Origin: Patescibacteria group bacterium
GTDB lineage: Bacteria; Patescibacteriota; Minisyncoccia; Portnoybacterales; UBA2143
Direction: 5' to 3'
Assembly (NCBI GenBank): GCA_034660935.1
Contig: JAYEKG010000008.1
Span: forward strand, 1-24,493
Length of the DNA stretch: 24,493 nucleotides
This document shows, piece by piece, positions 3 through 4,982 of this stretch. Within the stretch, counting starts at the first letter, position 1; every line of letters begins with the position of its first letter. Below the pieces are notes generated by a model. It saw only the letters and a program-made list of their open reading frames with translations. It searched no databases and was not told where the DNA came from. Position numbers and translations under genes: made by a program.

Positions 3-413
3 GTCCCTCGGTCGGATATTCAGGGTAAAAAAATCTTTGAAATCAATGACAAATATTATTTTGAAGACCTTGGATTAAGACATTCAATAATTGGGTATAA
101 ACAGCCCGATATTAATAAGATATTGGAAAATTTGGTTTTTCTACATATGCAAATTGCGGGCTATAAGGTGACAATTGGCAAACTCGGCAACAAAGAGGTA
201 GATTTTGTCTGCGAAAAAAATGATAAACGGTTATATATCCAGGTCGCTTATAGAATTACCGAAGAAAATCGCGAAAGAGAATTCGGCAATTTATTAGCGA
301 TTCCTGATAATTGTCCTAAAATAGTGGTTTCTATGGATGAAATGATAGATAAAAGCGAGTATAAGGGGATTAAACAATTCAATATTAGAGAATTTTTAAC
401 TAAACAAAATTAA
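3..413 (+). CDS. ATP-binding protein, AAA_14/DUF4143 family, C-terminal part (5'-truncated by window edge)
   Basis: Frame is open from nt 3: VPRSDIQGKKIFEINDKYYFEDLGLRHSIIG...ILENLVFLH...KEVDFVCEK...YIQVAY. The KYYFxDxG, LEN and EVDF motifs are typical of the DUF4143 C-terminal domain. The stop overlaps the next ATG (TAATG). Confidence 0.85.
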   Translation, partial: VPRSDIQGKKIFEINDKYYFEDLGLRHSIIGYKQPDINKILENLVFLHMQIAGYKVTIGKLGNKEVDFVCEKNDKRLYIQVAYRITEENREREFGNLLAIPDNCPKIVVSMDEMIDKSEYKGIKQFNIREFLTKQN

Positions 414-2155
414 TGATCAAATCAAAAACCCTGTCTCGCCGACAGGCGGATAAAACCTGCCAGAATTGCAAAGCCAAATTTGTCATAGAGCCGGAGGATT
501 TTGAATTTTATAAAAAAATAGGCGTTCCCGCACCTACTTTTTGTCAGGAGTGTAGAATGGTGAGAAGATGGTCTTTCCGTGATGGAAGAATGCTATACAA
601 AAGAAAGATTGAAAATTTTGACAAAGAAGTTTTTTCCAGCATACCTCCAAATTCTCCGTTTAAGGTTTATCATTCTGATTATTGGTGGTCTGATAAAATG
701 GATGCTATGAAATATGGCCGAGAATACAATTTTTCTCGTCCTTTTTTTGTCCAAATAAAAGAATTGATGCATGAAGTAGGTTTGCCTCATATGGCAAACA
801 TAAAAATAGTAAATAGTCCTTATTGTGGAAATGTTTCTTATCTTAAAAACTGTTATTGGGTTTTTAATACTGGCATGTCAGAAAATTGCGCCTATGGCAT
901 TGACGTTATTAAATGTCGAGACAGTTATGATTTAATCAAAACAAATAATAGTGAATTATGTTACGAACTGTTTGATTGTGATAAATGTTATCAGGTATTT
1001 TTTTCAAATGAATGCAAGGAAAGTTCAAATATCTGGTTTTCTAAAAATCTAGTAGACTGTCATAATTGTTTTGGCTGTGTCAATCTACGCCACAAAAAAT
1101 ATCATATTTTTAATAAGTCGCATACCAAAGAAGAGTATTTAAAAAAAATAAAAGAACTTGGTTTAGGCAGCTGTAAAAATATTTCAGAATTAAAAGAAAA
1201 AGCTAAGAAATTTTGGTTAGGTTTCCCAAATAAATTTATGTATGGCAACAAAAATGTTGATGTTTTGGGCAACTATCTTAATAATTGTAAGAATGCTAAA
1301 AATTGTTTTTTAAGTCGAGATCTAGAAGATTGCTCGCATTGCCAAATGATTCTTTTTGCGCCGAGTAAAGATTGTTATGATATAACAATCGCTGGCGGTG
1401 AATTATGTTACGAACTTTCTATAGGTGGAGGATATAAGTTAAAGTTTTGTTGGTTAATGCCACCTAAAGATTTAAAGAATCTTGACTTTGGTCTTTTTGA
1501 TTTAGAGTATACTGTATTAGCGCTTGACTCCTCCAACCTCTTCGCCTGCGTCGGCCTCAGACATAAGAAGTACTGCATCCTCAACAAACAATATACAAAG
1601 GAAGAATACAATAAATTAGTTCCTAAAATAAAAAAGCATATGAATGATATGCCATATACAGATAAGAAGGGTAGAGTATACAAATATGGAGAGTTCTTCC
1701 CCATAGAACTGTCTCCCTTCGCCTATAACGAAACAATAGCCAATGAATACTTTCCATTAACCAAAGAACAAGCATTAGAACGGGGATATAATTGGTATGA
1801 CAAACCAAAGAACGAGTACAAACCAACAATCAAAGCAAAAGACCTCCCGGACAACATAAGGGATGTAGATGATACCGTCTTAAAAGAAATAATAGAGTGC
1901 GACAGCAAGCATTGCGCCGGTTCTGGCGTCTTCCGCATTATTCCCCAAGAGTTGAAGTTCTACAAAAAGATGAATCTTCCTCTGCCCAGATTATGTCCTG
2001 ATTGCAGACACAGAGAAAGAATCAAACAAAGGAACCCTCTCAAACTATGGAAGAGGAAATGCATGAAGTGCGGCAAAGAAATCCAAACAACATATTCCCC
2101 GGACAGAAAAGAGATTGTTTACTGCGAAAGTTGTTATAATAAGGAGGTGGGATAA
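413..2155 (+). CDS. Cys-rich conserved hypothetical protein (CPR-type): terminal CxxC zinc-ribbon modules and central Cys-repeat region
   Basis: 580 aa, about 33 Cys by manual count. N-terminal CQNC...PTFCQECR, C-terminal PRLCPDCR...CMKC...YCESC, and twice-repeated (C/F)xCVxLRHKKYxIxNK. Function unknown. Confidence 0.85.
   Translation: MIKSKTLSRRQADKTCQNCKAKFVIEPEDFEFYKKIGVPAPTFCQECRMVRRWSFRDGRMLYKRKIENFDKEVFSSIPPNSPFKVYHSDYWWSDKMDAMKYGREYNFSRPFFVQIKELMHEVGLPHMANIKIVNSPYCGNVSYLKNCYWVFNTGMSENCAYGIDVIKCRDSYDLIKTNNSELCYELFDCDKCYQVFFSNECKESSNIWFSKNLVDCHNCFGCVNLRHKKYHIFNKSHTKEEYLKKIKELGLGSCKNISELKEKAKKFWLGFPNKFMYGNKNVDVLGNYLNNCKNAKNCFLSRDLEDCSHCQMILFAPSKDCYDITIAGGELCYELSIGGGYKLKFCWLMPPKDLKNLDFGLFDLEYTVLALDSSNLFACVGLRHKKYCILNKQYTKEEYNKLVPKIKKHMNDMPYTDKKGRVYKYGEFFPIELSPFAYNETIANEYFPLTKEQALERGYNWYDKPKNEYKPTIKAKDLPDNIRDVDDTVLKEIIECDSKHCAGSGVFRIIPQELKFYKKMNLPLPRLCPDCRHRERIKQRNPLKLWKRKCMKCGKEIQTTYSPDRKEIVYCESCYNKEVG
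430..446. repeat. Small palindromic insertion CCTGTC-TCGCC-GACAGG, translated in frame
   Basis: Perfect 6-bp arms. Absent at the equivalent position of the mini-copy at 3264. Confidence 0.6.
457..540 (+). repeat. Direct repeat R5 copy 1 (5' end of Cys-rich gene)
   Basis: 84 nt matching 3314-3397 with 4 mismatches by manual alignment. Confidence 0.95.
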
Positions 2156-2159
2156 AGCA
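2092..2159 (+). repeat. Direct repeat R3 copy 1 (3' end of Cys-rich gene)
   Basis: 68 nt matching 3398-3465 with 1 mismatch; identity extends 4 nt past the stop codon. Confidence 0.95.
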
Positions 2160-2232
2160 AGTGAAATCCACCTCAGACGGGCGGGGATTGTCATTTAAAG
2201 GAAATTGGGTAGTTATGATTAAATATTGCCGC

Positions 2233-2285
2233 TTGACAGATTCGGGAATGTCTAATAAAATAGACATATGTCTAATAAAATAGAC
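2233..2285 (+). promoter_or_regulatory. Sigma70-type promoter with tandem palindromic operators for the MNT-HEPN pair
   Basis: TTGACA (2233-2238), 17 nt, TAAAAT (2256-2261). ATGTCTAATAAAATAGAC is repeated at 2248-2265 and 2268-2285; the first unit extends to the perfect inverted repeat ATGTCTA-ATAAAA-TAGACAT (2248-2267). Confidence 0.8.
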
Positions 2286-2843
2286 GACAGAATAAAACGG
2301 GTTTTTATTTCATCAGGCGAGCAAAAAATTCTTGAGTATTTGTCTTTTGTCGATGAATGGAAAACAATTCAAGAAATCAAAAAAGCGAGCCAATTATCAA
2401 AAGCGGCTGTTTATTTAATTTTGGATAAATTATTTAAATTAAACCTGCTGGAACGAGACCAAAAAGGAAAAACCTATCTTTATAGAGTTAGTTCGGCTTT
2501 TCCTATTCTTTGCGTTTTAAGCCAATTTAAGGTTTTGAATAATTTAATCAATCTTTTGCCTTTATTGAAAAAATTAATTCCTGTTAGCCAAAAAATAATT
2601 TTATTTGGCAGCGCCAGCCGCGGAGAAGATTTAAAAAATAGTGATATAGATATTTTTGTAGTTGCGCATAATATTCAAGAAGTTAATAAATTAGTTAAAA
2701 AACATAGCGCGGACAGAAAAATACAGCTTATTACCCGCGCGCCGATAGATTATATTAAATTAGAACAAACAGCTCCTGCTTTTTATAATGAAATTAATTC
2801 CGGAATTGTCGTTTGGGAAAGGGAAAACCATTATGCAGAATAA
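2268..2843 (+). CDS. Winged-HTH + minimal nucleotidyltransferase (MNT) protein, putative antitoxin/autorepressor
   Basis: N-terminal HTH (TIQEIKKASQLSKAAVYLILDKL) and pol-beta-type NTase motif LFGSASRG...SDIDIFVV. Confidence 0.88.
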   Translation: MSNKIDDRIKRVFISSGEQKILEYLSFVDEWKTIQEIKKASQLSKAAVYLILDKLFKLNLLERDQKGKTYLYRVSSAFPILCVLSQFKVLNNLINLLPLLKKLIPVSQKIILFGSASRGEDLKNSDIDIFVVAHNIQEVNKLVKKHSADRKIQLITRAPIDYIKLEQTAPAFYNEINSGIVVWERENHYAE

Positions 2844-3267
2844 ATTCAAAAAGTGTTTGGAATACAAAAAAATAGTTCGTTTTAATCGCGGACCAAATTT
2901 GGTTTCTAAGGAATTAAAATTGTCTTTGGATGATTTGAATTCCGCCAAAGATATTTACAAAAGAGGAAATTATAAATGGGCGATAGTTCACGCGTATTAT
3001 TCAATGTTTCATGCAGGGAGGGGTTTATTGTATATAAAAAGATATCGTGAAAAGAGCCATTATTGCCTAATTGAAGCCATTAGGGAATTATATGTCAAGA
3101 AAAAGGAATTAAGTTTTATTTTTGTTGAAAGCATACATAAAGCTAAGGTCTTAAGAGAAGAAGCGGATTATTATGGTGAATATAAAAAATCGATGGCCGA
3201 AGAATTAGTTAAAAAATCAGGAGAATTTTTAGACGAGGTAAAAAAAATTATAAATAATAAAAGATGA
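2833..3267 (+). CDS. HEPN domain protein, cognate of the MNT (ATG at 2833 preferred over the track's 2788)
   Basis: AIVHAYYSMFHAGRGLL and LREEADY motifs, all-helical, about 144 aa; overlaps the MNT stop by 11 nt. Confidence 0.85.
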   Translation: MQNKFKKCLEYKKIVRFNRGPNLVSKELKLSLDDLNSAKDIYKRGNYKWAIVHAYYSMFHAGRGLLYIKRYREKSHYCLIEAIRELYVKKKELSFIFVESIHKAKVLREEADYYGEYKKSMAEELVKKSGEFLDEVKKIINNKR

Positions 3268-3461
3268 ACTCAAAAACAAAAACCCCCGTAAAAAGTAGAC
3301 TTAACGGGGCATGCTGCCAGAATTGCAAAGCCAAATTCGTCATAGAGCCGGAGGATTTTGAATTTTATAAAAAAATAGGCGTTCCAGAACCGACTTTATA
3401 CTCCCCGGACAGAAAAGAGATTGTTTACTGCGAAAGTTGTTATAATAAGGAGGTGGGATAA
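3264..3461 (+). CDS. 65-aa internally deleted mini-copy of the Cys-rich protein (CQNC...CESC); may be a pseudogene
   Basis: In-frame fusion of the R5 and R3 ends, lacking 1551 nt (517 codons, equivalent to 541-2091). ATGA overlap with the HEPN stop. Confidence 0.7.
   Translation: MNSKTKTPVKSRLNGACCQNCKAKFVIEPEDFEFYKKIGVPEPTLYSPDRKEIVYCESCYNKEVG
3284..3309. repeat. Small palindromic insertion CCCCGT-N14-ACGGGG, translated in frame
   Basis: Perfect 6-bp arms; part of a 30-nt segment (PVKSRLNGAC) not present in the full-length copy. Confidence 0.6.
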
Positions 3462-3465
3462 AGCA
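3314..3465 (+). repeat. Fused R5+R3 direct repeats, copy 2
   Basis: 3314-3397 matches 457-540 and 3398-3465 matches 2092-2159. Confidence 0.95.
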
Positions 3466-3467
3466 GT

Positions 3468-3494
3468 TTTTTTAGGGACCGAGTCCCTAAAAAA
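3468..3494. repeat. Tight palindrome TTTTTTAGGGAC-CGA-GTCCCTAAAAAA
   Basis: 12-bp perfect arms and 3-nt loop. T-run precedes and A-run follows on both strands, so it is not a canonical terminator. Confidence 0.65.
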
Positions 3495-3510
3495 GGATAG
3501 GATAGGAGGG

Positions 3511-3539
3511 TTGGAAACCAAGTTTTTAGGTGGTAAAAT
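3511..3539 (+). promoter_or_regulatory. Putative promoter for the VirD4-like gene
   Basis: TTGGAA, 17 nt, TAAAAT with extended TGn; ATG follows after 9 nt. Confidence 0.5.
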
Positions 3540-3548
3540 AAGGTTATT

Positions 3549-4982
3549 ATGAATAGAGAAAAAATTCGTAAAATTAAATACGCGCCGCCTCCTCCGGAAC
3601 TGCCGATTTATGGCAAGGTGGATACTAAAGAATGCTCTTTTTTTGGCAGGACAAATTATGAGGCCGCTTTGGAAGCGAAGAAATTTATCTTTGGCATTAA
3701 GCGGGAAGATAGAAGAAGACATATTTACACTGTTGGGAAAAGCGGGGTTGGGAAAAGCAAATTTTTAGAGCTTTTAATCCGCCAAGATATTGCTTACGGG
3801 CATGGCGTATGTTTAATAGACCCGCACGGCGATTTAATTGAAAATATTTTGGATTTTATTCCCAAAGAAAGAGTAGGCGATGTTGTGATGATTAACCCGT
3901 CAGACATTAATTTTCCGGTTTCTTTTAATCCTCTTTTGAATGTTGTTCCGGAATTAAAACATCAAGTTGCGCAGGGGTTGATAGAGGTTTTAGAAAAGCA
4001 ATTTGGCGCCAACTGGACGCCACGATTAGAACATGTTTTCAGATTTACCGTCTTGGCTCTTCTTGATTATCCGGAAGCGACAATGCGCGGAATGATTATG
4101 ATGCTGACAGACAGGCACTATAGGCAAAAGGTGGTGGACTACATTGAAGACGATATGGTCAAAAGATTCTGGGCGGTGGAATTTGCCGATTGGTCGGAGA
4201 AATTTGACACGGAAGCCATTATTCCTTTGGTGAACAAATTGAGCCAATTTCTTTCCAATCCGATGTTGCGCAATATTTTTGGCCAAAAGGAAAACAAAAT
4301 TGATTTGGATAATATTATCAATAGCAAAAAAATTCTTTTAATCAATTTAGCCAAAGGCAAGTTAGGGGAGGAAAATAGTTCGTTTTTTGGTTCAATGTTT
4401 ATCACCAAGCTTTATCAGACGGGTATGTCAAGGGCCTCAATGGAAGAGAAAAACAGGGAAGATTTCTATTTTTACATAGACGAGTTCCAAAATTTAGTAA
4501 CGACGACTTTTGAAAATTTATTTGCCGAATCAAGGAAATACGGGTTTTGTATTACGGTTGCCCATCAATATATGGCGCAATTATTGCCGCAAGTTATGGC
4601 AACTGTTTTGGGAAATATTGGAACAATAGTTGTTTTTAGGGTAGGCGGAGATGACGCGGCAAAGCTGGCTATGGAAATGAAACCGATTTTTCAAGCAGAA
4701 GATATGCTTAATTTGGGCATTCGGGAATTTTATATTAAAATGGCTATTGACGGCGAGACATTTGACCCTTTTTCCGCGGAAACATTAAAAGTTTTGCCCG
4801 CTACGCATAAAACTTGCAAAAAGGAAATTATAGAGCAAAGCCGAAAAAAATACGCTCTTTCGCTGGAAGAGGCAAAAAAGAAACTGGACGAAGAAGAAGC
4901 GCTGAAATTAAAGAAAAACGAAAAAGACAAGAAGGAAAAAAGAGGCGAGAAGGACAAAACAGAGCCAGAGCCGTTGGTGTAA
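3549..4982 (+). CDS. VirD4/TraG/HerA-like (type IV coupling protein family) ATPase with no predicted membrane anchor
   Basis: Walker A GKSGVGKS, IDPHGDL, FNPL, LINLAKG, Walker B FYFYIDEFQN, ESRKYG...AHQY...Q; charged Lys/Glu tail. Confidence 0.85.
   Translation: MNREKIRKIKYAPPPPELPIYGKVDTKECSFFGRTNYEAALEAKKFIFGIKREDRRRHIYTVGKSGVGKSKFLELLIRQDIAYGHGVCLIDPHGDLIENILDFIPKERVGDVVMINPSDINFPVSFNPLLNVVPELKHQVAQGLIEVLEKQFGANWTPRLEHVFRFTVLALLDYPEATMRGMIMMLTDRHYRQKVVDYIEDDMVKRFWAVEFADWSEKFDTEAIIPLVNKLSQFLSNPMLRNIFGQKENKIDLDNIINSKKILLINLAKGKLGEENSSFFGSMFITKLYQTGMSRASMEEKNREDFYFYIDEFQNLVTTTFENLFAESRKYGFCITVAHQYMAQLLPQVMATVLGNIGTIVVFRVGGDDAAKLAMEMKPIFQAEDMLNLGIREFYIKMAIDGETFDPFSAETLKVLPATHKTCKKEIIEQSRKKYALSLEEAKKKLDEEEALKLKKNEKDKKEKRGEKDKTEPEPLV

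Follow-up and report, generated by a model that had tools for sequence, protein, structure and literature searches.

This work concerns a 65-codon open reading frame (ORF), called here the mini ORF, and the genes around it in a 24,493-nucleotide (nt) stretch of DNA, the window, which is the start of contig C8 (JAYEKG010000008.1) of a Patescibacteria genome (G000, assembly GCA_034660935.1). The source is a brine metagenome, and four public runs (X1-X4) contain the window. The left part of the window carries a long gene of a cysteine-rich (Cys) family, Cys580, followed by a presumed toxin-antitoxin (TA) pair formed by a helix-turn-helix (HTH)-MNT gene and a HEPN gene, and then by the mini ORF, which repeats two separate pieces of Cys580. 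The features on which the argument depends are listed below, with the evidence for each in brackets.

413-2155, forward strand: Cys580, a full-length member (580 amino acids, aa) of a zinc-finger-capped Cys-rich family, orthologue of the relatives' Cys-B (homology, tree).
457-540, forward strand: repeat R5, codons 16-43, first half of the N-terminal treble-clef finger (repeat search, blastn).
2092-2159, forward strand: repeat R3, last 21 codons, stop codon and 4 nt (repeat search, blastn).
2268-2843, forward strand: HTH-MNT, a Pol-beta-type nucleotidyltransferase, presumed antitoxin and repressor (Pfam Polbeta 1.4e-10, NTP_transf_2 2.1e-9).
2788-3267, forward strand: HEPN, UPF0332/AF0298-like, presumed toxin, with a likely start at 2833 (Pfam HEPN 4.6e-14).
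3264-3461, forward strand: mini ORF, 65 aa, read here as the in-frame internal-deletion remnant of a TA-linked Cys-B orthologue (ORF list, repeats, alignment).
3314-3465, forward strand: R5' (3314-3397) followed by R3' (3398-3465), with the deletion junction between 3397 and 3398 (repeats, alignment).

The two repeats account for most of the mini ORF. R5 (457-540 against 3314-3397) is 84 nt long and 95% identical, with 4 mismatches (blastn E 1e-33), while R3 (2092-2159 against 3398-3465) is 68 nt long and 99% identical, with 1 mismatch (blastn E 8e-29), and extends 4 nt beyond the stop codon. The copies are spaced by 2857 nt for R5 and 1306 nt for R3, and 1551 nt of the Cys580 gene are absent from the mini ORF. 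The junction is blunt: the 5' source agrees through ACTTT and the 3' source from ATA, with zero shared bases, and the two pieces are joined in frame (PTL followed by YSPDRK). A search of the whole genome revealed no further copy of either repeat. Repeat search and alignment therefore confirmed what a first-pass annotation of this DNA had described, an ORF made of an 84-nt and a 68-nt piece with 1551 nt missing and no microhomology, and its spacings of 1306 and 2857 nt were arithmetically correct. The same annotation took the ORF for the 5' and 3' ends of the 580-aa gene; this stood for the repeats but not for the first ~50 nt, which derive from the TA-linked gene lineage and not from the 5' end of the neighbouring Cys580. 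The R5 mismatches are clustered, 3 of the 4 falling within the last 12 nt, and two, including an A-to-E change, agree with the TA-linked lineage. At the protein level, only residues equivalent to 16-43 and 560-580 are retained, and the solenoid core as well as the complete terminal fingers are gone. CQNC and CESC are kept, 27 residues apart (the native spacing in the N-terminal finger is 24), and the mini protein might, as the first-pass annotation suggested, still form a single zinc ribbon. The HEPN stop and the mini ORF start overlap in ATGA. In the structural sense, the mini ORF is a remnant and no longer a family member.

Three lineages share a unit in which an MNT/HEPN pair precedes a Cys gene and the HEPN stop overlaps the Cys start (ATGA). 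In genome G013 the unit lies at another locus (on contig G013:C4), in the order lepA, a 140-aa gene, the unit and tRNA-Thr; its Cys gene is full (578 aa), it has no Cys gene on its left side, and G000 holds a tRNA-Gly at the site that the unit occupies in G013. Window positions 2249-3281, which reach from the operators into the Cys gene as far as codon 6, align with the G013 unit without gaps at 81.8% nt identity, and the homology begins at 2249. In a G009-like population, represented by ~10 JGI and ENA contigs with the same order throughout, the unit belongs to a longer array (ATPase 2, Cys-A, MNT, HEPN, Cys-B, a 49-aa ORF, Cys-C, NUDIX, Cys-D, AlaRS) in which Cys-B has 574 aa. Here, window positions 1528-3282 are collinear, at 80.6% nt identity, with a segment that runs from the 3' third of Cys-A through the spacer and the TA pair into the first 18 nt of Cys-B. 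Like Cys-B (L125), the mini ORF begins with MNSK, overlaps HEPN by ATGA and contains VPEPT; given its collinear position, the MNSK start and VPEPT, it is the Cys-B orthologue minus its middle. Collinear at 81-82% nt identity in two other lineages, the TA pair and its downstream Cys gene are an inherited unit, not freshly captured cargo.

The upstream gene is a mosaic. In a maximum-likelihood tree Cys580 is sister to the G009-like relative's Cys-B (rel_CysB, support 100/99), and its core is 71-84% identical to Cys-B and 50-71% identical to Cys-A of the same relative; Cys580 is therefore B-type. The collinearity of its 3' third, on the other hand, continues into the spacer found after the relative's Cys-A. 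The pieces of the mini ORF are 95-99% identical to Cys580, while they reach 73-81% with Cys-A, Cys-B and Cys-C of the relative and 74-80% with G013. Similar exchange is visible in the relative itself, where Cys-A and Cys-B share 640 nt at 92% identity, with 98%, 100% and 97% in the 30-codon bins over codons 481-570.

Cys580 belongs to a large family, with at least 7976 homologues (E<=1e-3), all annotated as hypothetical and all from Patescibacteria/Minisyncoccota, the best being 77% identical over 98% of the length. A literature search gave no description of the Cys-rich family. Like other full-length members (~570-620 aa), Cys580 has a zf_Tbcl-like finger at its N-terminus and zf_Tbcl plus zf_Tbcl_2 fingers at its C-terminus; matches to zf_Tbcl (PF13451), zf_Tbcl_2 (PF23477) and TIGR04272 are found at the ends only and fall below the curated cut-offs of Pfam and NCBIfam. 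The family alignment, Cys580 included, contains invariant Cys columns, and the family is beta-solenoid-like. The AlphaFold2 model of Cys580 is confident, with a predicted local distance difference test (pLDDT) score of 81, and has structural TM values of 0.93-0.96 to family clusters in the Atlas. A fold search of the PDB gave nothing significant, the best matches being left-handed beta-helix enzymes (E>=2), and those in the AlphaFold DB were uncharacterised proteins of the Candidate Phyla Radiation only, many of them truncated forms. In 40 relatives, family copies are arranged in tandem, 1-4 or more per array, and some are internally deleted but still in frame, such as a 441-aa frame in G013 with residues 12-242, 389-554 and 541-580. 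A common array order is a ~458-aa protein, ATPase 2, the Cys copies, ATPase 1 and then often AlaRS and an FtsA-like gene; the order is altered in the genomes of some relatives. Cys580 likewise stands in or beside such a tandem array, adjoining orphan VirD4-like ATPase genes, and is the one intact family copy of G000.

Taken together, we consider it fairly probable that the mini ORF is the internally deleted leftover of a second paralogue copy, produced by ordinary paralogue recombination and decay, with the TA pair as an inherited guest. The region would be the variable part of a gene array maintained by Patescibacteria, with an orphan VirD4-like ATPase gene on either side, and the starting state would be the inherited MNT-HEPN-Cys unit, in which HEPN stop and Cys start overlap. 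In a first step, the genes upstream and downstream of the TA pair would have been made near-identical, the upstream gene gaining a B-type core, either through a long gene conversion or through an unequal-crossover duplication within the homogenised 3' third. In a second step, the redundant downstream copy would have lost 1551 nt by one non-homologous in-frame deletion, giving the 65-codon ORF. The mini ORF is probably still co-transcribed with the TA pair, ending at a strong hairpin, and RecA could occasionally delete the TA pair via the 84- and 68-nt repeats, as for any direct repeats. Such a two-step history accounts for the pieces of the mini ORF being so much closer to the neighbour than to the copies of the relatives, and for the clustering of the R5 mismatches. 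Other copies that collapsed or decayed independently, P0121, P0123 and the frameshifted L040, support it. On this reading, both direct repeats (84 nt and 68 nt) are scars left when paralogues recombined and decayed, and they do not form a dedicated cassette device.

Several observations weigh against this reading or against its details. Conversion followed by deletion, or deletion followed by two short conversion tracts, could have been the order of events. More than two rearrangements are needed, because a Cys copy of the relative also adjoins an AAA-DUF4143 gene (AAA, Cys, AAA, ATPase 2). Moreover, the deletion is in frame, the CxxC...CxxC pattern and the translational-coupling overlap are kept, and 2 of the 3 short forms found are TA-linked or TA-like-linked; selection for a small protein, instead of plain decay, could have acted. 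Finally, the depth of the unitig (an unbranched assembly path) that carries the TA pair is lower than that of the downstream ATPase gene, 13.6 against 27-28.5 in run X1 and 6.5 against 10-11 in run X2, which suggests that only about half of the population sharing the ATPase 1 gene carries the TA region, so that a presence/absence polymorphism is possible.

A false junction, arising if a full-length second copy had collapsed in assembly or if two strains had been joined, is scarcely credible. The contig does begin inside a gene, several related strains and paralogues coexist in the sample, and the k=31 unitigs of the four runs break inside both repeats, so that none listed crosses the boundary between 3397 and 3398. 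Against this, a 61-nt probe was taken from 3368-3428, where all but one of its 31 possible 31-mers cross the junction; it was sampled at two words, and both are present in Logan contigs of runs X1 and X2, two samples which may both be the source of the window DNA. The junction, which the first-pass annotation had proposed to confirm in reads, is thus present in reads independently of this genome's assembler. In addition, variants specific to the mini ORF flank the junction, 12 nt away or less on its left side and 4 nt away on its right, and novel adjacencies are not made by De Bruijn assemblers, so misassembly is unlikely. It is also possible to see the mini ORF as a selected small zinc-finger protein, the third gene of an MNT-HEPN operon, acting for example as a decoy or adaptor for the VirD4-like ATPases or as a modulator of the TA pair. 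This agrees with the preserved frame, with the CQNC/CESC spacing of 27 near the native 24, with the conserved ATGA coupling to HEPN, with the terminator that follows, and with the fact that ATPase 2 bears the same finger type. Finger-only relatives also exist, namely a 92-aa zf_Tbcl plus zf_Tbcl_2 cluster in the Atlas, P0121 and P0125, and another ~61-aa form, P0123 (61 aa), follows an HTH-MNT gene and a 136-aa gene without Pfam hit, where HEPN would sit. P0121 (91 aa, L038:220-495) is an independent collapsed member, in which the N-terminal finger runs straight into the C-terminal ones at the homologous PTFC/PDCR point; at the canonical array site, upstream of genes for an 82-aa membrane protein and AlaRS, it takes the place of the full-length copy seen in relatives. 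We nevertheless judge a selected function quite unlikely. Short relatives are sporadic, only 7 among 5.8 billion proteins, each with its own junction and none with this hybrid architecture; a full-length gene holds the orthologous position in both relatives; the single-sequence AlphaFold2 model of the mini protein is of low confidence (pLDDT 62); and the 5 differences from the neighbour are too few for a selection test. One candidate, P0126 (44 aa), was rejected as a mini gene, its contig translating only with TGA read as tryptophan and its fragmentation coming from gene calling. Contig L037 translates only with TGA as tryptophan, and at least 3 tandem family copies on it are shredded by standard-code calling into ORFs of 32-126 aa; shredding of this type is a source of false mini proteins in databases.

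The remaining alternative extends the one favoured by the first-pass annotation. The finger-coding gene ends of this Patescibacteria-specific family would be portable homology arms, through which RecA would swap gene cores and the guests between copies (MNT/HEPN pairs, AAA_14-DUF4143 ATPases, NUDIX, nuclease fragments) among array members and co-occurring strains without an integrase, while TA pairs would guard and stabilise the arrays; the window would capture this process at one moment. RecA is encoded in the genome, and no tyrosine recombinase is found on C8 or C35, the only PF00589 matches of the genome being on contigs C92 and C97 (other recombinase families were not searched), so in that respect the locus is integrase-free as had been proposed. 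Also in agreement with the proposal, Cys genes are multi-copy and the guest genes between copies vary among related genomes. In the same-genus genome G001 (L032), the 3.1-kb Cys580-TA-mini block is replaced by a 0.68-kb gene, with flanks 87% and 77% identical in nt: over window positions 404-3544, homology ends 8 nt before the AAA stop and returns 4 nt before the ATPase 1 start. The TA-Cys unit occupies one locus in G000 and another in G013, neither with a recombinase nearby, the relative has mosaic genes and the 640-nt repeat around its TA pair, and the TA unitig is about half as deep as the downstream one. Moreover, L040, a Logan unitig from the window's own sample, carries a different, unrelated HEPN/MNT pair, with a HEPN of 150 aa, 16 nt upstream of a Cys gene whose first 131 nt, palindrome included, are 87% identical to those of the mini ORF and which is frameshifted near codon 110. 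The summed depths of L040 (11.5) and the TA unitig (13.6) come close to the 27-28 of the downstream ATPase gene, and L040 may be an allele of the window locus in a sister strain.

The idea of maintained recombination handles was not borne out by comparing nucleotide identity block by block across 19 Cys copies from 10 genomes. The median identity of the 5' finger block was 0.75 within genomes and 0.74 between them, against 0.76 and 0.73 for the 3' block and 0.77 and 0.76 for the conserved core blocks; no general homogenisation of gene ends within genomes was found, and the typical ~75% is too low for efficient homologous recombination. The ends are similar because they encode conserved zinc fingers. 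Conversion is rather sporadic and local, as in a pair of G005 (L029) whose 3' ends share 79 nt at 95%, in the 3' third of the relative's Cys-A and Cys-B, and in this window. The TA pair, which had been proposed to be cargo gained and lost, is inherited with the downstream Cys gene: its position has been kept over ~20% nt divergence, and the order is constant in ~10 contigs. The G013 unit lacks a left-hand Cys gene, and only 1 of 80 related HEPN loci, G013 itself, has a Cys gene within 4 kb. As to the excision circles of 1306 and 2857 bp that had been predicted, no matching joint was seen in the unitigs of the 4 runs, which cannot phase 68-84-nt repeats and would miss rare variants. Two candidate joints were rejected. 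One, going back 2853 nt (3328 to 476) and thus close in size to the junction of a 2857-bp circle, is L040, a third paralogue with its own HEPN gene and single-nucleotide polymorphisms; the other, skipping 1331 nt (2136 to 3468) and considered as a deletion haplotype, is a mapping ambiguity in which 2136 is equivalent to 3442, at the gene end of a divergent strain. Overall we regard the portable-arm explanation as rather doubtful, and continue to favour paralogue recombination and decay around an inherited TA unit.

The remaining features of the region are given below.

3-413, forward strand: AAA_14-DUF4143 ATPase, C-terminal 136 aa, cut by the contig start (Pfam DUF4143).
2233-2285, forward strand: TA promoter, TTGACA-17-TAAAAT, with tandem GTCTA-N6-TAGAC palindromes (motif scan, inverted repeat search).
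3283-3314, forward strand: ~30-nt palindromic in-frame insertion CCCCGT...ACGGGG (missing from the relatives' Cys-B, found in L040).
3468-3494, no strand assigned: terminator-like hairpin with a 12-bp stem and T/A runs on both sides, closing the MNT-HEPN-mini unit (sequence).
3549-4982, forward strand: orphan VirD4/TraD-like ATPase 1, conserved right border of the variable array (Pfam TrwB_AAD_bind, DUF87, TraG-D_C).

The overlapping, adjacent MNT and HEPN genes, with Pfam hits above cut-off, form a HEPN/MNT pair which is kept in the relatives. The MNT protein has weak TrmB/MarR HTH matches in Pfam and the GS...DxD motif in the form GSASRG...SDID, and is 70% identical in aa to that of G013 and 81% to that of the G009-like relative; for HEPN the values are 86% and 90%. 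HEPN matches the PDB entry 2hsb (AF0298) with an E of 8.7e-7. It is without the catalytic Rx4-6H, having LREEADYY (R-x4-Y) instead, as do 3 of 3 aligned homologues, and AF0298 also has R-x4-Y. Because R-x4-Y replaces the expected Rx4-6H, an RNase function is uncertain; it is plausible that the HEPN protein acts as a toxin. The pair lies between the two Cys copies with its own promoter, as first annotated: TTGACA-17-TAAAAT (2233-2261) is the top promoter-like site in 5 kb, matching at 11 of 12 positions. Among the 80 best HEPN relatives, on one-genome-per-species contigs, no Cys gene was found within 4 kb outside G013, and TA-Cys linkage is confined to particular lineages.

We also noticed palindromes at the beginning of the Cys genes. 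Three distinct short ones are inserted in frame at one spot, after codon 5-6 (TC.AAAAC), in three family members: at 430-446 of the window (Cys580), at 3283-3314 (the mini/L040 lineage) and at L142:1236-1290 (the AAA-flanked copy of the G009-like relative). Cys-A and Cys-B of this relative have no palindrome insert. The codon 5-6 palindromes look like an insertion hotspot or a selected 5' hairpin.

The AAA_14-DUF4143 gene at the contig start allows the array to be followed further to the left. Its N-terminal 268 aa, with AAA_14 and the start of DUF4143, are found at the start of contig C35 (C35:1-804, reverse strand); the halves span profile positions 2-64 and 77-159, and 268 plus 136 aa agrees with the 403-405 aa of the orthologues in G001 and G009. 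As the gene is split across both contig ends, C35 (reverse) adjoins C8. Between the contig ends a T12 run stands beside the split point, ATPase 2 falls ~190 nt upstream of the AAA_14-DUF4143 gene once C35 and C8 are joined, and G000 has 6 DUF4143 genes in total. The DUF4143 ORF and the Cys580 gene overlap by TAATG, in agreement with the abutting ATPase described in the first-pass annotation. The order across C35-C8 would then be the ~458-aa protein, ATPase 2, AAA_14-DUF4143, Cys580, HTH-MNT, HEPN, mini ORF and ATPase 1, and the complete array of G000 is AAA-DUF4143, Cys580, MNT, HEPN and mini. ATPase 1 is 80-87% identical in aa in the relatives, where it adjoins their arrays. ATPase 2 (G000:C35:998-2776, L044) has a CxxC-x17-CxxC finger matching TIGR04272 above cut-off, and this finger is also present in ATPase 2 of the relatives; it resembles in type the C-terminal end of Cys-family proteins, which hints at a shared partner or a shared recognition. 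According to a previous study, Patescibacteria genomes have about two VirD4 homologues each, most of them distant from virB4 (PMC12102498). Exact-protein look-ups of ATPase 1, the window HEPN and the L040 HEPN gained no further context.

Across genomes, the guests of the arrays include AAA_14-DUF4143, MNT/HEPN, NUDIX, the 49-aa fragment, a queuosine-precursor transporter and a 219-aa gene; the array content is clearly fluid. The 219-aa gene is the replacement gene of G001 and has no Pfam or NCBIfam match. On the far side of its AAA gene, G001 retains a Cys copy that belongs to a divergent subfamily, and no such copy is present in G000. In the G009-like relative, the NUDIX gene (L138:4946-5341) lies between Cys copies, and the 49-aa ORF (L138:2984-3133) starts MNTLENKNFAYIDGANLHKR and resembles, by eye, the start of an NYN/LabA-type nuclease.

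The host family is among the largest undescribed protein families of ultra-small Patescibacteria, and it stands beside VirD4-like ATPases. The locus shows how its arrays evolve: neighbours exchange sequence, redundant copies collapse, sometimes in frame, and small addiction- or defence-type genes lodge between Cys copies and are inherited with them. The MNT-HEPN pair that is translationally coupled to a family member in three lineages provides an experimental handle, while the locus alone reveals no new mobility mechanism.

Compared with known HEPN/MNT systems (type VII MntA-HepT; UPF0332/AF0298-type), the window pair shares the MNT-then-HEPN order, the overlapping frames, the GS...DxD motif, a strong promoter with putative palindromic operators and an HTH on MNT, and differs by R-x4-Y, as in AF0298, and by a coupled third gene. 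Within the Cys-rich family, Cys580 is typical, with 580 aa, fingers at both ends, a Cys ladder and a place between two VirD4-like ATPase genes. The mini ORF differs in that its N-terminal finger is reduced to the first half and its last finger to the second half, and the locus differs from the usual family layout by a TA pair translationally coupled to a family member and by a single intact copy in the genome.

The orphan modules of rhs/cdi loci are truncated fragments with a short conserved stretch, located downstream of the main and immunity genes and recombining with the main gene. The window is alike in having a full gene, small protective gene(s), a truncated copy with near-identical stretches and possible recombination between them. 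On the other hand, its fragment brings no alternative toxin or core to swap, MNT/HEPN is a stand-alone pair and not a cognate immunity gene, and the Cys family is cytoplasmic and zinc-binding, with no polymorphic toxin domain. TA cassettes are known to stabilise integron cassette arrays, and concerted evolution occurs in bacterial tandem gene families. The window has no integrase, attC-like site or cassette organisation as integron arrays do; its TA pair likewise lies between direct repeats otherwise able to delete the segment, and by this analogy one may speculate that it stabilises the array. The resemblance to concerted evolution lies in gene conversion yielding mosaic paralogues, as in the window. 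The new findings are the collapsed copy, the conservation of the three-gene MNT-HEPN-Cys unit and the direct evidence of mosaic evolution around this unit.

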